From a candidate division WOR-3 bacterium (lineage in GTDB: Bacteria; Hydrothermota; Hydrothermia; LBFQ01): a stretch of 54,517 bases of DNA. Location of the stretch: assembly GCA_015492295.1 (NCBI GenBank), contig WGFI01000099.1, forward strand, positions 1 through 54,517, given 5' to 3'. Made by a program: the position numbers and the translations under genes. This document shows positions 1 to 10,718 of this stretch, one piece after another. The first letter of the stretch is position 1; each line of letters opens with the position of its first letter. The notes under the pieces are model-generated. The model was given only the letters and a program-made list of their open reading frames with translations. It was not told the DNA's origin and made no database searches.

Positions 1-59
1 TAGCGTTGAAGGTCTATGAATGGGCAAAAGATATAGTTGAAGGTACGACCTTAGAATAG
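1..59 (+). CDS. HEPN domain protein, C-terminal fragment (cut by window edge)
   Basis: Frame from base 3 reads ALKVYEWAKDIVEGTTLE*, nearly identical to the C-terminus of HEPN 402..791. Confidence 0.85.
   Translation, partial: ALKVYEWAKDIVEGTTLE
46..57 (+). promoter_or_regulatory. Putative leaderless promoter CGACCT-TAGAAT
   Basis: -10-like hexamer 7 nt before GTG at 65; instance of window-wide motif. Confidence 0.65.
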
Positions 60-64
60 GGGTA

Positions 65-433
65 GTGAAGGAAGGGAAGGATTTACTTAAAAGAGACCCT
101 GTTCTCCGCCGTATAGTTGAGGTGATCGTTAGGGAGATAGACCCGGATAAAATAATCCTCTTTGGTTCAAGAGCGAGGGGAGATTACAAAGAAGATAGCG
201 ATTATGATATTCTCGTGCTTAAAGAAGGGGTTAGAGCGGAGGAAAGGAGGAAGATTGAGATGAAAATTGAGAGAATGTTTCTTAAAGAGGGTATATTTGT
301 CCCAACAGATGTTATAGTTCAAGATTCTCATAGGTATAAAAGTCTCAAAAAGCGTGTAGGTAAGGTATATTACAGCATAGAGAAGGAAGGGGTTCTGGTG
401 TATGAGTGTAGAAGATGCAAAGGAGTGGCTTGA
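65..433 (+). CDS. Minimal nucleotidyltransferase (MNT) antitoxin-like protein
   Basis: FGSRARGDYKEDSDYD (GSx10DxD), DVIV third Asp, EGVLVYE end motif; overlaps HEPN start. Confidence 0.9.
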   Translation: MKEGKDLLKRDPVLRRIVEVIVREIDPDKIILFGSRARGDYKEDSDYDILVLKEGVRAEERRKIEMKIERMFLKEGIFVPTDVIVQDSHRYKSLKKRVGKVYYSIEKEGVLVYECRRCKGVA

Positions 434-791
434 ATTTGCACGAAAGGATATAAGGAGAGCTTACAACAACGCATCGTTGGAAGATTATTCACTTGCAGTG
501 TATTTACTTCAGCAGGCAGTGGAAAAGTCGCTGAAAGCTGTTATCATTTTACATGGTAAAACCCCGCCCCGAACCCACAATATTCGTACGCTTATAGGTA
601 CCATTGAAGAATTTAAAGATTTTCCCGAGGATCTAGAAGATGCGGCTAATTTAACCCGTTATGCATTTGAAACGCGTTATCCAGATGAATACATTTCAGT
701 AGAGGAAAAGGAGTACGAAGAGGCTTATGATTTAGCGTTGAAGGTCTATGAATGGGCGAAAGATATAGTTGAAAGTACAGCCTTAGAATAG
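402..791 (+). CDS. HEPN domain protein (COG2250/HEPN-T type)
   Basis: W..A..D, QQAVEKSLKA, TH, RYPD motifs; paired with upstream MNT. Confidence 0.9.
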   Translation: MSVEDAKEWLEFARKDIRRAYNNASLEDYSLAVYLLQQAVEKSLKAVIILHGKTPPRTHNIRTLIGTIEEFKDFPEDLEDAANLTRYAFETRYPDEYISVEEKEYEEAYDLALKVYEWAKDIVESTALE

Positions 792-959
792 GGGTAATGA
801 AGGAAGGTAGAGATTTACTTAAAAGAGACCCTGTTCTCTGCCGCATAGTTGAAGTGATCGTCAAGGAGATAGACCCAGATAGGATAATCCTCTTTGGTTC
901 AAGGGCAAGAGGGGATTACAGGGAAGATAGTGATTATGATATTCTCGTGCTTAAAGAAG
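733..959 (+). repeat. Conserved junction repeat of MNT-HEPN array, copy 2
   Basis: Aligns without gaps to 1..226. Confidence 0.9.
778..789 (+). promoter_or_regulatory. Putative leaderless promoter CAGCCT-TAGAAT
   Basis: 7 nt before ATG at 797. Confidence 0.65.
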
Positions 960-1180
960 AGGTAAAGCCGGAGGATAGGAGGCCGTTGCAGAGGAGAATA
1001 AGGAGAGCGCTTTGGAGGGAGGATATTTACGGTTCGGCCTCAGTGGATGTGATAGTGCAGGACACTCGAAGATACGAGGATTTGAAGGAGAGGTGGGACC
1101 TTATATATTACGATGCCGATAAGGAGGGGGTGATTCTTTATGAGAGAAAGAGCAAAAGAGTGGCTAAAGTTTTCCCTTGA
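797..1180 (+). CDS. MNT antitoxin-like protein
   Basis: GSRARGDYREDSDYD motif; first ~54 aa almost identical to 65..433, C-terminal half divergent. Confidence 0.9.
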   Translation: MKEGRDLLKRDPVLCRIVEVIVKEIDPDRIILFGSRARGDYREDSDYDILVLKEEVKPEDRRPLQRRIRRALWREDIYGSASVDVIVQDTRRYEDLKERWDLIYYDADKEGVILYERKSKRVAKVFP

Positions 1181-1541
1181 TGACCTTGAGGTGGCCCGTG
1201 AGGCGGCAAAACTCGGAAAGTACAATATAGCGGCGTATCACCTACAACAGGCCGTTGAAAAGGCTATAAAAGGTGTTATAGTTTTTATTGGAAAGCGTAA
1301 AAGTTTAAAAACGCACGATATAAGTGTTCTTTTTAAGATGTTGATGGAGGAGGGTGTTAATGTACCCGTTGAAGTTTTGGACGCTCAGGAACTAACAGAG
1401 TACGCTTTCACAACTCGTTATCCCGACGATTACATCCCCGTTTCTGCGGAGGAGTACGAGGAGGCCTATGAAATAGCGTTGAAGGTCTATGAATGGGCAA
1501 AAGGGATAATAGAAGGTAGTGAAGGAGGGAAAGGGATCTGA
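1140..1541 (+). CDS. HEPN domain protein (COG2250 type), C-terminus altered by deletion
   Basis: QQAVEKAIKG, KTHD, TRYPDD, ALKVYEWAK motifs. Confidence 0.9.
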   Translation: MRERAKEWLKFSLDDLEVAREAAKLGKYNIAAYHLQQAVEKAIKGVIVFIGKRKSLKTHDISVLFKMLMEEGVNVPVEVLDAQELTEYAFTTRYPDDYIPVSAEEYEEAYEIALKVYEWAKGIIEGSEGGKGI

Positions 1542-1640
1542 TTCGGTTCAAGGGCGAAGGGGGATTACAAAGAGGACAGCGATTACGATATTCTCGTGCT
1601 TAAAGAAGGGGTTAGAGCGGAGGAAAGGAGGAAGATTGAG
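1474..1640 (+). repeat. Junction repeat of MNT-HEPN array, copy 3 (with two deletions)
   Basis: TAGCGTTGAAGGTCTATGAATGGGCAAAAG matches base 1 onward; 1591..1640 identical to ~210..259. Confidence 0.85.
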
Positions 1641-1820
1641 GGAAAGCTGCTTGTTGAGTTCCTCAAGGCGAGGATCTATAGGGATGTGGCCGTGGATGTG
1701 ATAGTTCAGCCGCCTGATAAGATTGAGGAGCTGAAGGACGTTCCTTATATGGTCTATTACGACGCTCACAGGGAGGGGGTAGTGATATATGAGGTGGAAC
1801 TTTCGGGTTTAGAATTCTAA
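1519..1820 (+). pseudogene. MNT pseudogene (N-terminal deletion and frameshift)
   Basis: GTG-KEGK start at 1519, about 73 nt shorter than copy 1, then out-of-frame FGSRAKGDYKEDSDYDILVLKE from 1542; no HEPN partner follows. Confidence 0.8.
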
Positions 1821-1821
1821 G

Positions 1822-2115
1822 GTGCTAACGCTTGCGGAGGTAAAGGAGATACTTAAGGGATACAAGGATGAGATAAGAGAGAGATACAAAGCGGAGATTT
1901 TGGGTGTTTTCGGCTCTTATGCGAGGGGTGAGCAGAATGAAAAGAGCGATGTGGATATTCTTGTCAGATTCCATAAGGGTGCAACGCTTTTTGATCTCGT
2001 TGAACTTGGAGATTTCCTTGAAGAAAAGCTCGGTATAAACGTGGATATAGTTTCGGAAAACGCCGTAAGGGAGGAGTTAAGAGATAGAATAGAGAAGGAT
2101 TTGGTCGCGCTGTGA
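1822..2115 (+). CDS. MntA-like nucleotidyltransferase antitoxin (COG1669 type)
   Basis: FGSYARGEQNEKSDVD, L...LG..VD.V motif; GTGA overlap with the DUF86 gene. Confidence 0.9.
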   Translation: MLTLAEVKEILKGYKDEIRERYKAEILGVFGSYARGEQNEKSDVDILVRFHKGATLFDLVELGDFLEEKLGINVDIVSENAVREELRDRIEKDLVAL

Positions 2116-2455
2116 AGAGGGATTATAGGCTTTTCATAAAAGACATGCTTGAGTCTATGGAAGCGATAGAGAGGTTTGTTGAAGGGATGGAGTTCGAGGA
2201 ATTTTCAAGGACAACAAGACAACGAGTGCGGTGATAAGGAAGTTTGAGATCATAGGGGAGGCTGCAAGACATGTTCCCGATTGGATAAGGGAGAGGTATT
2301 CGGATGTCCCGTGGGGAAGTATGATAGGGATGAGGAACAGATTGATTCACGCCTATTTCGGTATAGATTACAGACTCGTATGGGACACGATAAAGGTTGA
2401 ATTTCCAAAGGTAAAACCCCAGCTGTTAAAAATCCTCGAGGATTTGGGGGAATAG
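2112..2455 (+). pseudogene. HepT-like DUF86 (COG2361) RNase toxin, frameshifted
   Basis: GTG 2112 MKRDYRLFIKDMLE...EFEEF, frame change at ~2202-2206, then KDNKTTSAVIRKFEIIGEA...GMRNRLIHAY (Rx4HxY). Confidence 0.85.
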
Positions 2456-3108
2456 CGGTTGTTAAGGGAATAGGCATCCCCTATGTCTTCCACATTTATG
2501 CCTCTCGCCTTTTTGCGATACTCCTCAGCTTTCTTTTTATCCCCTTTCTTCTCGTAGGCTTCGGCGAGGTTTTCGTAGACTGTAGCGACATAAGGATGCT
2601 CAGGTCCTAAGGTTTTGAGACGAATGCTCAGAGCTTTGTTGTAATACTCTATTGCCCTGTCATATTCGCCTTTGTCGCCGTATGCATTGCCCAAGTTGTT
2701 GTATATATCCGCTCTCAGAAGTTCCAACACCTCACCTATTTCCTCTTTGCTCAAATACATCATACCTTCATCTCCAAGTATGACAGGTACCCTCTCCTCT
2801 TCCACCCTTATATCGCTCAGCCCTTCAAGGGCGTACCCGTACATCCTTATCTCTTCATCGTACATCGCACTATTGCTAAGCATATCTCCATACATCCCAC
2901 ATCCCAAAGCTATGGCCTCAGGTATATCCCTCCACAGACCTTCTTTACATACTTCTTCGTACTGACCGTTGGAAATGGGGCGGAGCAAACTCGTGTCTTT
3001 TGCAGCAAGCAGACTAAGAAGGATAGACAACCTATTCTCAACAACGACACTGTCAAGGGCGAGGGTTAGAAAGAGCATAGGGGAGGATGCTGGAAGGAGC
3101 ATTAGCAT
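2368..3108 (-). CDS. Tetratricopeptide repeat protein (TPR_12-like)
   Basis: YNNLGNAY..KGEYDRAIEYYNKAL..RLKTLGPEHPYVATVYENLA; start moved to 3108 (TAAAAT 8 nt upstream); 3' end overlaps the DUF86 gene. Confidence 0.7.
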   Translation of the reverse strand: MLMLLPASSPMLFLTLALDSVVVENRLSILLSLLAAKDTSLLRPISNGQYEEVCKEGLWRDIPEAIALGCGMYGDMLSNSAMYDEEIRMYGYALEGLSDIRVEEERVPVILGDEGMMYLSKEEIGEVLELLRADIYNNLGNAYGDKGEYDRAIEYYNKALSIRLKTLGPEHPYVATVYENLAEAYEKKGDKKKAEEYRKKARGINVEDIGDAYSLNNRYSPKSSRIFNSWGFTFGNSTFIVSHTSL

Positions 3109-3175
3109 AGGCGAATATTTTAACACGGCCAGCTTTTGCAAGGGGGATTTATTCCATCCTTAAAATTAAGGGATT

Positions 3176-3559
3176 GTGAGGGATACGGCGAGAAAGTGGT
3201 ATAAACAGGCTCTTCACGACCTTGAAATGGCCGAAAAGAACATTCAAATAGAAGGTTATGATGTTTCAGCGTTTCTATCGCACCAAGCGGTTGAGAAGCT
3301 CTTAAAAGCGGGTTTTATATTGGAGGGTAAGGAAGTACCCAAGACGCATTTCGTTGATGAACTCGCACAGGGGCTTAATTTACCAAATGAACTTCAAAGA
3401 GAGATCGCAGAGCTTACAGTGGATTACACCTTATTCAGATACCCAGATGTTTCCGATAGTGTCCCTTATGAGCAATACACGAGAGAAATCGCTTTGGAGA
3501 AGATCCACATCGCCAAAAAGGTTTTGAAGTACTTTAAAGAGAGATGGGGGGAGTTATGA
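3176..3559 (+). CDS. HEPN domain protein (COG2250 type)
   Basis: WYKQA..DL, HQAVEKLLKA, PKTH, RYPD; promoter CATCCTTAAAAT at 3155..3166. Confidence 0.9.
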   Translation: MRDTARKWYKQALHDLEMAEKNIQIEGYDVSAFLSHQAVEKLLKAGFILEGKEVPKTHFVDELAQGLNLPNELQREIAELTVDYTLFRYPDVSDSVPYEQYTREIALEKIHIAKKVLKYFKERWGEL

Positions 3560-3900
3560 AGGATAGATGGGTTGAAAGGTTTATCAAAGAGGCTCTACCT
3601 AAGATTTTAAGCGAAGTTTCCCCTTTGCTAGTTATAATCTTCGGCTCAAGGGTAAAAGGTGGTGCAAGGGAAGATTCCGATATTGATGTTATAGTTGTTT
3701 CGGACTACTTTAAGGACATACCTTTTATAAAGAGGATGCCGATGCTTTTGAGATTGGTATATTTCGAAAAGCATATTGATTTTCTGTGCTATACGGAGGA
3801 AGAGTTTAACAGGATAAAGGATGAATCCGTTATCGTGAGGACAGCCCTGCGGGAAGGAATAAACGTATATGCACTTAATCCTCCCCCAACCTCTTCCTGA
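3556..3900 (+). CDS. MNT nucleotidyltransferase
   Basis: FGSRVKGGAREDSDID, IDFLCYTEEEF; ATGA overlap with HEPN stop gives start 3556. Confidence 0.9.
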   Translation: MKDRWVERFIKEALPKILSEVSPLLVIIFGSRVKGGAREDSDIDVIVVSDYFKDIPFIKRMPMLLRLVYFEKHIDFLCYTEEEFNRIKDESVIVRTALREGINVYALNPPPTSS

Positions 3901-4141
3901 TCTCCTCCGCCCTTTTCTTGTCTCCCTTCTTCTCATAGGCTTTGGCGAGGTTTTCGTAAACCATGGCGACATAAGGATGCTCAGGGCCTAAGGTTTTGAA
4001 GTATATCTTCAGGGCCTTGTTGAGATACTCAATAGCCCTGGAGTAGTCTTCTTTGTTGTAGTTTGCACTACATTTGTTTTCTCTTAATTCCTCCCAGCTT
4101 TTGGATAGGTAAAGGGTCCGCTCGGTTTTTCCAAAAAACAA
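3875..4141 (-). pseudogene. Short TPR protein or fragment, paralog of 2368..3108
   Basis: RAIEYLNKALKIYFKTLGPEHPYVAMVYENLAKAYEKKGDKKRAEE; weak TTG start. Confidence 0.6.
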
Positions 4142-4165
4142 ATTTTTCTGGGGTATAATAAACGG

Positions 4166-4864
4166 TTGTTATTACCGATTATAAAACTGAAAAATGTGCA
4201 TAAGACTTATAGAATAGGGGAGAGTTCTGTGCATGTTTTGAAAGGGGTTAATTTGAGGGTTGTTCCAGGTGAGGTTGTGGGGATTATGGGGCCGTCAGGT
4301 TCAGGAAAATCCACACTGCTGAATATTATATCAACTCTTGATTTCGCTGATGAAGGTTATGTTGAAGTACTTGAAAATGAAATTTCTCCCTCAAAATTCA
4401 CGGATAATGAACTTGCGATATTTCGCAGAAAGCACATAGGGATCATATTTCAATCGCACAATCTTATGCCCGAAATGACGGCTTTTGAGAATGTATATTT
4501 CGCTCTGTTGTTAAAAGGCTACTCCTCAAAGAGGGCGAAAAAGAGAGCGGAAGAAGTGTTAGAGGTGTTAGAAATAACCTCCGATAAGATGCACAAGAAT
4601 ATTCAGCTTCTATCCGGGGGGGAGAGACAGAGGGTTGCCGTTGCGAGGGCTTTGGCCATGGATGCGGAGATATTCATATGCGATGAACCTACCGCTGAAT
4701 TGGATAAAAGGAACGCCATAAACCTTATAAGCATTATGAGTAATCTCGCTTTTACGGGTAAAACTTTCATAGTGGCAACGCATGATGAAAGGCTTATGCC
4801 GTTTTTTACATCGGTATATAAGTTGGAAGATGGAGTTTTAAACTTGGTAAAAAAGGAGGTTTGA
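4166..4864 (+). CDS. ABC transporter ATP-binding protein (LolD/MacB-like)
   Basis: GPSGSGKST, LSGGERQRVAVARAL, DEPT, ATHD; TATAAT 6 nt upstream. Confidence 0.9.
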   Translation: MLLPIIKLKNVHKTYRIGESSVHVLKGVNLRVVPGEVVGIMGPSGSGKSTLLNIISTLDFADEGYVEVLENEISPSKFTDNELAIFRRKHIGIIFQSHNLMPEMTAFENVYFALLLKGYSSKRAKKRAEEVLEVLEITSDKMHKNIQLLSGGERQRVAVARALAMDAEIFICDEPTAELDKRNAINLISIMSNLAFTGKTFIVATHDERLMPFFTSVYKLEDGVLNLVKKEV

Positions 4865-4865
4865 T

Positions 4866-5255
4866 ATGGAAAAGATAACGCAAATTTTAACGCAACTGGC
4901 TTCGGAGATGCCTGGATTTTTAGCATGCGCTTTGGTTGATAAAGAGGAAGGATTAACGATAGCGGAGCAGAAATCGGAGCAAGACTTCGAAGTTTCTATA
5001 ACCGCCGCTTACAGTGTAGAACTTCTGAGAGCGCAGAAAAGGGCTTTAGAAAGTATAAACGAACAGGATGAGAGTATAGAAATATTCGCATTTACCAAGA
5101 ATTACCTGTTCATATCAAAATCCGTAGGTGATACACCTTTCTATCTTCACCTCGTTCTGAAAAGGGAAAAAGCGGTTCTTGGGTTGGTTTTTGCGTTTCT
5201 AAGGAGGTATGTATTATTGCTTGAGAAGGCAATAGAGGAATGGCAGAAAGCGTAA
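4866..5255 (+). CDS. Roadblock/LC7-like domain protein
   Basis: 129 aa with L..L...PG..A.ALVD..GL.IA pattern and terminal LVL......LG. Confidence 0.65.
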   Translation: MEKITQILTQLASEMPGFLACALVDKEEGLTIAEQKSEQDFEVSITAAYSVELLRAQKRALESINEQDESIEIFAFTKNYLFISKSVGDTPFYLHLVLKREKAVLGLVFAFLRRYVLLLEKAIEEWQKA

Positions 5256-8788: not shown

Positions 8789-10718
8789 TGCCGAGCTTCT
8801 TATATAGTCTATCCCTGCTGTGCGGTGAGGATGCGAAATAAGTATCTAAGGAATCAAGGTAATATTGGGTTGCCAAGCCGAAATCTCCGCTCAACGATGC
8901 TATATCCCCTAATTCTTCTTTGATCATAGATAATACAAACGGAAGATTCTTTGTGTATTTTGCGGCTAAGGTCAGATATTCATAAGCACTCGCCCTATAA
9001 GATTTGTTCTTTGTCTCCTTATAGAGATGTGTAAAGGTTTTGCCTACGATGAAATTCAAAATGCCATAAGTTATCGGAAAGATTTCCTCCAGGTTCTCGG
9101 AGAGATTTATCGCCTCATCTATAATATCCAATGGATCTGAAAAAAATATCCTATTGTACAATTTCAAGGATTTGGCCTGTAAGAGGTTGTATATGTTGTT
9201 TGATCCCGTAAGGGACCTTTCCAGTTCATTGAAAAATGTCTCTGCTAGCGTGTGTTGTCCTAAGAGCATATACACTATTCCCATATAAGCATAGATTTTA
9301 GGGTTCTGCGTATGTTTGAGTAATACCTCGTATTCTCTCAGTATGTTATTGGCCATATCATACCTTCCCGTATGGTACATCTTATGAACCATTATCTTTA
9401 ACTTCAACAACCTGTGGTTTTCATCTATTCTAAGTAGTATATTTTGGGCATCATCAAGGTTTTTCAAAGGATCAAAAATATAAGACATCCTCACATAGGA
9501 CCTCACCTTATATATTAAGGCCTCTTTAGCCTTCAATCCATATTTGTTTCTCCTCGCTATATCAAACGAGGCATTAAAGAAATTCAAAGATTTTCTGTAA
9601 TTGTTCAGACATTCAAACTCTCGCCCTTTAAGAAGAAAGTACCTCCCTAGGGATAGATATATATTCATTCTGAGTTCATCGTTATGCAAATATCTGCTTA
9701 TCTCATACAACTGCTGAGCGTAGCTATCCGCGACTTCAAGATAATATCTATCCATATTCTTAAACCACATGCCTAAGAAAATATCAAGGAGAGATATAAG
9801 ATAAACAACCTTATCGTACTTATCAAGCGAACCCATATTTATGGTGTTTATAAGATTAAACGCCTTGTCGTATTTCCTTTCATAAGCGAGTCTTTTAATA
9901 ATAAAGACATCCATCTCATCGTTTATTCCCAAAAGATCATCCAATTTTGTTCCTATCTTTAAATTTAGGATCTGCAAGACTTTTATATCGGGATATAGAA
10001 TTGCGTTGTACTCTCTTATAAAACCCATAAACTTTAAAATTTCAATGTGATTTTCAAACTCCTCATATTTCATTTTTTCTCTGACTATGGAACTTATCCA
10101 AGATTTAGGAATTCCAAAGTTATGTTTAAAGATGCCATTTTCAATCAGAATACTTATGATACCCAATATGTACTTCGTCTTTATATCCAACTTTTCAAGT
10201 CTCTCCTCCCATCTTCGCATAATATCAAGCCCCATTTCCATCTGGGTTTTGTCTTCGCTTATATCTATCAGGTTAATCTTTTGGGGAAATATCTCTTTAT
10301 AATAAATCCCATGATTCTCAAAAAACTTCTTGATTATTATTTCCTCATCGTCTCCCCAGCAACTGATTCCTATTATTTGAAAACCCTTAGACTTTGACTT
10401 CAACAAAAACTTGTGGGCATTGGCGGTATATATATTGGAATCAAAGTCAAAAAGTAATATATGCTTCCTTTTAAGCAAATTTCTCGGTATATAGTTTCTC
10501 TCAATGTCCTTGATTTCAGGGATAAATACGCGTTTCTTTGGAAAGCGCTGTTTAAGGATAGTTAGAACCTTTTGTTTAAGATTATCTCCTAAATATGAGA
10601 ATATGATGATGCTCTCTCCCTTTGATACAGGTATCTCTATCTCATTCCTAACATTTTCATCAACATAAACATCCTCAACTCTTATGCTCTTCAAAGGAAC
10701 GAGTTTTCCCAGAACCAT
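8772..10718 (-). CDS. Large hypothetical protein with C-terminal TPR-like helical repeats
   Basis: ~650 aa ORF; helical repeats such as IYAYMGIVYMLLGQHTLAETFF, LGDIASLSGDFGLATQYY; start uncertain (10718 or 10745). Confidence 0.65.
   Translation of the reverse strand: MVLGKLVPLKSIRVEDVYVDENVRNEIEIPVSKGESIIIFSYLGDNLKQKVLTILKQRFPKKRVFIPEIKDIERNYIPRNLLKRKHILLFDFDSNIYTANAHKFLLKSKSKGFQIIGISCWGDDEEIIIKKFFENHGIYYKEIFPQKINLIDISEDKTQMEMGLDIMRRWEERLEKLDIKTKYILGIISILIENGIFKHNFGIPKSWISSIVREKMKYEEFENHIEILKFMGFIREYNAILYPDIKVLQILNLKIGTKLDDLLGINDEMDVFIIKRLAYERKYDKAFNLINTINMGSLDKYDKVVYLISLLDIFLGMWFKNMDRYYLEVADSYAQQLYEISRYLHNDELRMNIYLSLGRYFLLKGREFECLNNYRKSLNFFNASFDIARRNKYGLKAKEALIYKVRSYVRMSYIFDPLKNLDDAQNILLRIDENHRLLKLKIMVHKMYHTGRYDMANNILREYEVLLKHTQNPKIYAYMGIVYMLLGQHTLAETFFNELERSLTGSNNIYNLLQAKSLKLYNRIFFSDPLDIIDEAINLSENLEEIFPITYGILNFIVGKTFTHLYKETKNKSYRASAYEYLTLAAKYTKNLPFVLSMIKEELGDIASLSGDFGLATQYYLDSLDTYFASSPHSRDRLYKKLGIKTSE

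Follow-up and report, generated by a model that had tools for sequence, protein, structure and literature searches.

A 54,517-nucleotide (nt) stretch of DNA from a candidate division WOR-3 bacterium, starting at position 1 of contig WGFI01000099.1 (here C99; the whole stretch is referred to as the window), opens with a tandem array of MNT-HEPN gene pairs. Overall, this array is probably a set of paralogous pairs that each carry their own promoter, in which the junctions between consecutive units have been homogenised by recombination and the cores belong to old types (labelled T1, T2, and so on). The source genome, G000, is a 1.96-Mb assembly of 121 contigs, 90% complete and with 41.7% GC, and was compared with relatives designated in the same way (e.g., G006, G009, and G010).

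An earlier note, made from the sequence alone, had described at least three consecutive units with a ~730-nt period running off the window edge. Period and truncation were both confirmed: MNT starts at 65, 797, and 1519 are spaced by 732 and 722 nt, and the array continues past the assembly edge, as position 1 of the window, also the first of C99, lies inside a HEPN tail. The unit count needs qualification: two complete pairs follow this tail, and unit 3 is only a broken MNT, with neither an in-frame start codon nor a HEPN partner (intact pairs of its type, T9, occur in G009 and G010). All five array genes matched Pfam families above curated cut-offs in a profile search (PF18765: 45.8, 42.8, and 33.0 bits for units 1, 2, and 3, cut-off 26.9; PF05168: 95.8 and 90.5 bits for HEPN1 and HEPN2, cut-off 22). 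The two genes of a pair overlap (32 nt for unit 1, 41 nt for unit 2, and a range of 25–41 nt across 20 aligned units), and only 5 nt separate a HEPN stop from the next MNT start, so that the promoter discussed below sits within the HEPN coding end without any spacer. The array ends near 1793, with flank homology from GGAACTTTCGG onward.

Given that the contig begins within a repeat and that k-mer contigs break at the junctions, the array could in principle be an artefact of repeats mis-joined in a metagenome bin. We find this hardly credible: Logan contigs of run X1 covered the array stretch at even depth (54.8, 50.2, and 43.7), a single 1248-nt contig from this second assembler crossed 230–1477, i.e., core, junction, and core, with zero differences (X1 is perhaps the source sample, in which case this support is not independent), and similar arrays lie inside long contigs of four other genomes. 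The X1 contig on 1–150 ends at window position 1, and an X2 contig extends 37 letters further; parts of 1132–1392 were uncovered in X2 (depth about 4–7), which we do not read as absence. A tandem-repeat scan with TRF returned two short repeats only, the array being invisible to this program because its longest period is 500, while an Rfam scan of the window gave no match and a tRNA search at the array loci found none.

Similarity between units is concentrated in a junction block made of the final HEPN codons, a -10 box, and MNT codons 1–55. Positions 1–226 and 733–958 are 89.8% identical (88.4% by blastn for 1–250 vs 733–982), and the HEPN tails at 671–777 and 1412–1518 are 77.6% identical. 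Among paralogues of G000 (6 pairs), nucleotide identity was 84% in the MNT N-half vs 54% in the MNT C-half and 53% in the HEPN N-part. We aligned 20 intact units out of 21 and left out the unit of G006c79, whose HEPN is broken; this unit had been a candidate for a re-assorted MNT/HEPN pair, which was rejected once its HEPN was recognised as a pseudogene. Across all aligned units, MNT residues 1–56 (codons 1–56 in unit 1) and the last ~35 HEPN residues are similar. In sliding windows over pairs from the same array, identity reached 83–97% in the MNT 5' part and 72–100% in the HEPN tail vs mostly 32–60% in the cores, where one conserved helix reached 67%. The pattern was reversed when unit 2 was compared with a T2 relative (MNT 5' part 73–83%, core 78–98%).

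Trees built from the junction and from the cores are incongruent. On the MNT N-half tree, genome labels required 7 changes (null mean 12.1; 0 of 500 shuffles with ≤7) and type labels required 12 (81 of 500 shuffles with ≤12), and the four own units formed one clade with a support of 89.9. The core trees required 8 changes for type labels, which is the minimum (0 of 500 shuffles), and 14 and 13 for genome labels, with the HEPN tail tree being intermediate (10 changes, 39 of 500). In approximately unbiased (AU) tests, core data rejected an own-genome clade (p 4.5e-57), and MNT N-half data rejected the type clades (T1 0.011, T2 0.0028, T3 0.029). The synonymous difference (pS) of the MNT N-half was 0.485 for units of the same genome but different type (29 pairs) and 0.753 for units of the same type from the own vs the sister genus (6 pairs), with the cores of those 6 pairs at 0.62; the non-synonymous difference (pN) of the MNT N-half was 0.06–0.08 in every pair class.

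Since the difference in GC content at third codon positions (GC3; 0.42 vs 0.55–0.61 between genomes) could by itself group conserved segments by genome, we added a codon-usage control. Specifically, at sites where own paralogues share the same amino acid, the observed proportion of identical codons was compared to that expected from codon usage. Identical codons amounted to 69.9% vs an expected 43.9% in the MNT N-half and 60.0% vs 44.0% in the HEPN tail, and to 49.3% vs 43.9% and 44.3% vs 38.9% in the two cores. Within-genome paralogues are thus closer to each other than cross-genome copies of the same type, over a delimited segment and beyond codon usage, as is characteristic of concerted evolution. 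The junction is conserved by protein constraint and promoter first, with concerted evolution on top.

Individual events point in the same direction. Positions 206–259 and 1587–1640 are exactly identical over 54 nt, compared to 43 of 54 for unit 2 in the same register, which bears out the mosaic tract of ~50 nt that had been reported for units 1 and 3 to the exclusion of unit 2. Unit 1 reads GVRAEERRKIE as in T9, and its T1 relatives have ..DRGKWE; 206–259 is a gene-conversion tract ending at 259. The junction between units 2 and 3 is dead: it lost the usual HEPN stop together with the TAGAAT -10 box through a 19-nt deletion, and MNT codons ~8–32 through one of 73 nt. As a result of the junction deletion, the C-terminal tail of HEPN2 is altered (…EGSEGGKGI). 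The same double deletion is present in a second array of the genome, on contig C70 (blastn 1416–1627 vs C70 1341–1130, 89.6% over 212 nt), flanked there by a T6 HEPN and a T7 MNT, as compared to a T2 HEPN and a T9 MNT in C99, with cores that are unlike on both sides. This dead junction was copied between the two arrays, a sign of recombination. In C99 (TGA 1539–1541) as in C70, the altered HEPN stop is in frame with the MNT remnant, and read-through at that TGA would yield a HEPN-MNT fusion lacking the MNT N-terminus; the odds of such a frame arising by chance are 1/3.

Junctions also come in flavours. Own and G009 units read YKEDSDYD and those of G010 and G006 Y[NT]EGSDYD, while G003 has a third flavour, at three places; one G009 junction has the flavour of G000, so that the genome-specific flavour rule is not absolute. 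All own HEPN tails end in ..ALE-stop and most sister-genus tails in ..QP-stop, from the same CAGCCTTAG letters shifted by one base. In the sister genus, sliding windows showed adjacent junctions to be 95–100% alike.

An account without recombination would have old tandem duplicates under strong purifying selection on their catalytic halves and weak selection elsewhere, in line with the low pN of the MNT N-half in all pair classes and with the presence of both active sites in the junction. This is very improbable, given that the AU tests reject congruence, that only the junction has more synonymous identity than codon usage predicts, and that cross-genus pairs of the same type are closer in their cores than in the MNT N-half, in addition to the double deletion common to two arrays and the exact 54-nt tract.

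Next, we evaluated the variable block, which the earlier note had described as hypervariable. This description did not hold: clustering at 65% amino acid identity resolved 9 groups for the MNT C-half and likewise 9 for the HEPN N-part, with bimodal identity distributions, and two more types (own unit 3 and unit b of the array on contig C84) were found among units outside the 20-unit alignment. The variable block comprises at least 9–11 old discrete types shared across genera at 70–93% amino acid identity. Own unit 2, for instance, is 83–88% (MNT; G010c21_3097, G006c18_1518, and a G009 copy) and 86–93% (HEPN) identical to its copies in G006, G009, and G010, and own unit 1 is 71–76% identical to its relatives. 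Cores are saturated between types (pS 0.72–0.80, pN 0.37–0.41), while within a type across genomes (16 pairs) pS was 0.37–0.40 and pN only 0.06–0.08, which places the cores under purifying selection. In most units, the MNT C-half is accompanied by the HEPN N-part of the same type, as in a linked block of the kind proposed before, although co-inheritance of two adjacent segments is expected from junction-confined recombination and is no proof by itself of co-adaptation. This linkage was broken once: T2 and T2b have the front of the MNT C-half in common and unrelated HEPNs.

The genome contains three more arrays (C84, C70, and C59), i.e., four in total. In the three-unit C84 array, one unit is whole, another has a frameshift in its HEPN, and the remaining one has a HEPN cut at its 3' end; that on C70 has one whole unit followed by a 5'-deleted MNT with a HEPN cut by an insertion sequence; and that on C59 has one pair followed by a decayed pair. 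On C70, an open reading frame (ORF) resembling a transposase by eye (L003, ~100–800, + strand) is inserted in the second-unit HEPN, which is cut after ~42 residues, and a cobalamin riboswitch (112 bits; L001 4582–4751, - strand) lies directly upstream of the C59 array. Overall, both genes are whole in 5 of 10 units of the genome, and two of those five have an altered HEPN tail. DNA matches were obtained in 10 of 41 related genomes including G000, with hits in 8 of the 11 members of its family, 6 of the 7 from the sister genus, and 2 of the 4 from its own genus; one contig of G009 carries four units, a 1.8-kb gap, and three further units. Beyond the family, the best relatives showed ≤50% amino acid identity, save for one fragment at 84%, and 6 of the 80 distant loci, among them loci of Aenigmatarchaeota, Nanoarchaeota, and Acidilobaceae, had at least two MNT copies in tandem. 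In the archaeal loci L045 and L065, similarity once more peaks in the MNT 5' part (85–91% nt identity). Loci L045, L097, L075, and L065 have arrays of 4–6 MNT-HEPN pairs, with whole units ~69–74% alike in L045 and L097.

Unit number and order are not invariant at orthologous loci. The right flank of the C99 locus is common with G010c21 and G006c27 (86–88% nt identity), yet the cassettes differ: [..T1,T2,T9del] in C99, [T2,T4,T4] in G010c21, and [T1,T4] in G006c27. A second orthologous pair holds [T5,T2b,T1] in G010c31 vs [T2] in G006c18. The order T2 then T9 is common to C99 and G009. Taken together, the proposal that junctions act as recombination handles is supported, by incongruent trees, AU tests, and excess synonymous identity on the one hand, and by the shared dead junction, the 54-nt tract, and differing cassettes at orthologous loci on the other.

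A promoter for each unit had likewise been suggested. CCTTAGAAT and 7 nt precede the MNT start in each of the 20 aligned units, also in first units whose upstream DNA is unrelated, and the HEPN reads this motif in differing frames (A-L-E-stop vs Q-P-stop). We surveyed 1306 ORFs of ≥200 amino acids in G000: TANNNT was found 6–9 nt before the first start for 36.9% of them vs 8.3% in a within-gene control (four gap rows summed), or for 444 of 1306 when each ORF is counted once, with TAAAAT (121), TAGAAT (93), and TATAAT (92) as top hexamers. Upstream of the box, these 444 ORFs are T-rich from -11 to -7, with C at -6 (0.73) and at -3 (0.61), C/T at -2, and T at -1, followed by TAnAAT. A Shine-Dalgarno-like word was present in 1 of the 444, making the two signals almost exclusive. 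The junction CAGCCT-TAGAAT + 7 nt + GTG/ATG is a base-for-base fit to this consensus, and its box has the architecture of the genome's leaderless genes, i.e., TAnAAT 6–9 nt before the start. Unlike other leaderless promoters of G000, it doubles as the end codons and stop of a HEPN and is copied with the cassette. Because the motif is kept as DNA despite two HEPN frames, fits the genomic consensus, and is gone from the dead junction, every cassette is most likely transcribed from a promoter of its own into a leaderless message, beginning at a start site that we infer, and the suggestion of unit-specific promoters is upheld to that extent.

Two short motifs had also been considered as sites of another kind. 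CAGCCTTAGAAT was dropped as a recombination site because a promoter explains it better, given the genome-wide -10 consensus, and GTTTAGAAT at 1806–1814 (TTAGAAT 1808–1814) was dropped as a cassette end because orthologous flanks identify it as the promoter of the next gene. In G009, a ~50-nt element (…CAGCATAGACG.ATATTTTAACACGG.CGGCCGG.TTTTGCAA…; L016, contig C1, ~3140–3180, 5100–5150, and 9830–9878) precedes a DUF86 mntA gene and both arrays; it contains TTGCAA, 17 nt, and TAGAAT before mntA, and the spacing is only 10 nt before the arrays.

The left ends of arrays can be read in two ways. In all genomes with arrays, ..CCTTAGAAT.. is located some 15 nt upstream of the first MNT start, also where the neighbouring genes are unrelated, as would be expected if only promoter-bearing copies persist. 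Alternatively, the junction could be the dedicated recombination site, integron-like or site-specific, of an evolved cassette-exchange system, with selection keeping the array as a library of toxin-antitoxin or defence variants insulated from one another. Such a system would account for left ends that start ~5–17 nt upstream of the same motif in five genomes, for the C84 array terminating in ACAGCCTTAGAATAAA fused to a cut HEPN, for the different cassettes of orthologous loci, and for the persistence of types across genera, as under balancing selection. We nonetheless consider it quite improbable: the junction motif is the genome's own -10 consensus, left ends are offset by as much as 12 nt and ragged deletions form the right ends, no inverted repeat is found at the junction (4 inverted pairs in 1–5000, none there), the dead junction has spread, and half of the own units have decayed. 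The assembly holds only two PF00589 tyrosine recombinases, on C96 and C121, and none on the array contigs; at 90% completeness, a recombinase may have been missed. We saw no sign of machinery dedicated to shuffling or of an adaptive library; a dead junction that has spread and units of which half have decayed instead suggest plain homologous recombination on repeats.

Both sets of candidate catalytic residues fall within the constant part. A G-S…D-x-D motif defines the MNT family, and G34 S35 and D46 Y47 D48 are invariant in 10 aligned MNTs, inside the constant MNT half. On the HEPN side, R92-Y-P-D-D/E-Y97 is invariant in 8 sequences, inside the constant end, with H59 invariant further up; relatives of known structure include 1UFB, 1WOL, and 1O3U, and 1UFB has RYPDAH at the same place. 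The array HEPNs lack the Rx4-6H RNase motif, as Tyr replaces the canonical His. According to Anantharaman 2013 (PMC3710099), several HEPN-T proteins whose motif His is replaced retain a His elsewhere, and according to PMC13000451, the MNT of studied HepT/MntA pairs transfers AMP to a tyrosine beside the motif. In the array units, as in HepT/MntA, the MNT lies upstream of the HEPN in one operon and has the GS...DxD motif, and the HEPN motif has a conserved Tyr. By this analogy, the array pairs probably work like type VII toxin-antitoxin systems, with the HEPN as toxin and the MNT as modifying antitoxin; both AMP transfer and HEPN toxicity would be carried over from the studied pairs. They differ from HepT/MntA in that their HEPNs belong to PF05168, not PF01934, that R-Y-P-D-D/E-Y is without His, and that the MNTs stay under the equivalog cut-off. 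In the window, the array HEPNs matched PF05168 only, and the HepT-like PF01934 was matched only by the neighbouring broken gene (2231–2455). No HEPN match was returned by PADLOC or NCBIfam searches.

The decay of units offers an indirect sign of which partner may be toxic. Among 31 MNT copies at 12 loci in 5 genomes, counted without a detailed look at the HEPNs at array ends in G008 and G010c16, the HEPN was broken and the MNT whole in 4 (C84 b, C84 c, G009 T2, and G006c79), the reverse in 0, and both lost or broken in 3; this order of decay would be expected if the HEPN is the toxin. A complex prediction for MNT1 and HEPN1 with alignments A1 and A2 scored 0.00 and carries no weight either way.

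Instead of toxin-antitoxin pairs, the MNT and HEPN could form a two-subunit nucleotidyltransferase, as in kanamycin nucleotidyltransferase, in which case the variable block would be a substrate pocket and the array a series of enzymes that differ in their substrates. The initial proposal for HEPN-T was a role as substrate-binding partner of MNT, and antibiotic inactivation was left open by Makarova 2009 (PMC2701414, PMC3710099). The Tyr at the position of the canonical Rx4H His and the lack of HEPN matches in PADLOC and NCBIfam would also suit an enzyme of this kind. We regard it as unlikely, however, because the MNT-first order with overlapping genes resembles HepT/MntA, invariant H59, Y93, and Y97 are retained in the HEPN, and a two-subunit enzyme does not predict the 4:0 loss of HEPNs beside whole MNTs.

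Several observations weigh against the combined interpretation of recombined junctions, old core types, cassette promoters, and toxin-antitoxin function. The junctions had been called near-identical, and identity is indeed 89.8% over 1–226 vs 733–958, but the synonymous difference between own junctions is still 0.47, which is not near-identity and suggests that homogenisation in G000 is not recent, near-identical junctions being found in the sister genus instead. GC3 alone pulls the conserved segments of one genome together, and the codon control covers the own genome only. The comparison is based on five genomes and 20 units, which are kin rather than independent, and type names were assigned after the alignment was seen. 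Clusters of the MNT C-half and HEPN N-part differ, as T2 and T2b merge in the MNT C-half, where own T1 also splits from its type at 65%. The promoter is a matter of motif statistics: internal junctions have no properly spaced -35, and a sigma-70 scan found 4 sites vs 3.6 expected, none at a junction. With Tyr for the His of Rx4H, RNase toxicity is not assured, and the 4:0 asymmetry comes from few cases (p about 0.06 in a one-sided sign test). Finally, with NF047752, the MntA equivalog model, the MNTs scored 35.3 and 38.0 bits, short of the cut-off of 60; given these scores and HEPNs that are not HepT-like, we filed the pairs under the thermophile MNT/HEPN-T family.

Thermophile MNT-HEPN modules (COG1708 / COG2250, PF05168) share with the array pairs the same Pfam families, small proteins, the MNT-first order, the gene overlap, and abundance in thermophiles. 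Multi-copy MNT/HEPN clusters have been noted in crenarchaea, as stated in Makarova 2009 (PMC2701414) and Anantharaman 2013 (PMC3710099). In the main texts found, supplements aside, there is no account of junctions that stay constant through concerted evolution, of old core types crossing genus borders, or of a promoter within the junction, and the literature searched reports no experiment on the present PF05168 branch. Two other kinds of array invite comparison. In contact-dependent inhibition (CDI) and Rhs polymorphic toxins, the constant part belongs to one large expressed gene, and downstream orphan toxin-immunity cassettes are silent. Such arrays, and silent-cassette gene conversion, resemble the present arrays in their constant recombination homology, joint movement of a toxin part and its protector, several versions, and many incomplete copies; unlike CDI/Rhs arrays, every MNT-HEPN cassette has a putative promoter of its own and both genes, and there is no delivery system. 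Integrons are tandem arrays of small cassettes, often toxin-antitoxin genes, similarly inserted at gene ends. The MNT-HEPN arrays differ from them by having no adjacent integrase, no attC-like inverted repeats, their own candidate promoters, and inexact boundaries.

To the right of the array lie an MntA gene and a HepT-like gene interrupted by a stop codon. This pair (1822–2455) is found at 86–88% nt identity beside arrays in G009, G010, and G006 and is a conserved right flank in the sister genus; its MntA is preceded by TAGAAT + 6 nt + GTG. Further on, a third, distant pair (3176–3900) is 34% and 30% identical to the array genes at the amino acid level, with its HEPN start after CCATCCT-TAAAAT + 9 nt. 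A TPR-repeat gene at 2368–3141 and a fragment at 3875–4141, both on the - strand, are 77% identical over 166 nt (2521–2686 vs 3902–4067), and many similar TPR pieces surround the G009 arrays.

Table 1. Features of the array and its neighbourhood in the window.
Feature	Position	Strand	Evidence
HEPN 3' end of unit 0 (last 18 codons and stop)	1..59	+	tblastn 3–56 = HEPN1 residues 112–129, 89%
Putative extended -10 box CGACCT-TAGAAT, unit 1	46..57	+	7 nt before GTG at 65; overlaps HEPN coding end
MNT unit 1, type T1, probable antitoxin	65..433	+	PF18765 7.1e-12, PF01909 7.6e-11
Gene-conversion tract of unit 1	206..259	+	identical to 1587–1640 in unit 3
HEPN unit 1, type T1, probable toxin	402..791	+	PF05168 2.6e-27; 1UFB 2.8e-15
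Putative extended -10 box CAGCCT-TAGAAT, unit 2	778..789	+	7 nt before ATG at 797
MNT unit 2, type T2	797..1180	+	PF18765 5.9e-11
HEPN unit 2, type T2	1140..1541	+	PF05168 1.1e-25; alignment
Dead junction	1506..1545	+	19-nt and 73-nt deletions; alignment, blastn
MNT remnant of unit 3, type T9, 5'-deleted	1542..1820	+	PF18765 6.8e-08, from profile position 19
DUF86-type MntA, outside array	1822–2115	+	PF01909 1.4e-15
HepT-like gene, stop at 2232–2234, outside array	ORFs 2112–2234, 2231–2455	+	PF01934 7.2e-20
Third, distant pair, HEPN-then-MNT order	HEPN 3176–3559, MNT 3544–3900	+	PF05168 1e-24, PF01909 9.8e-10

According to the explanation that we favour, the array would be a row of paralogous pairs of a COG1708-like MNT with HEPN-T (PF05168). 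Each pair would form a separate transcription unit, with a leaderless message driven from an extended -10 box that overlaps the preceding HEPN stop, and the HEPN may be translated by coupling, since its start lies inside the MNT end. The junction unites the HEPN active-site end (R-Y-P-D-D/E-Y), the probable promoter, and the catalytic half of the MNT (GS...DxD); gene conversion and unequal crossing-over among units and arrays would keep it homogeneous inside each genome. With recombination falling mainly in the junctions, the variable block would be inherited as one piece, and the MNT C-half together with the HEPN N-terminal helices is likely the seat of partner specificity, a role we infer. 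Homologous recombination at the junctions could add, delete, replace, and reorder cassettes, and the same process would also spread damage, such that arrays both grow and decay.

MNT-HEPN genes are among the commonest of thermophiles, and the reason for their many copies is unsettled. The present locus provides a clear natural dissection of the pair, in which active sites and a likely promoter are constant and the remainder exists in old discrete versions; this split points to the site of partner specificity and supplies sets of cognate and non-cognate partners. A promoter laid over a stop codon would make a cassette self-sufficient in a leaderless genome, and homologous recombination alone may be able to build, reshuffle, and erode toxin-antitoxin arrays without a dedicated enzyme. 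A more speculative extension, which we hold to be rather unlikely, is that the junction is a portable element shaped for shuffling specificity blocks, with a balanced polymorphism of insulated pairs serving defence or inter-genome competition. If true, these arrays would correspond, on the chromosome, to the cassette arrays of polymorphic toxins, and the same design might possibly be found in archaeal MNT-HEPN arrays.

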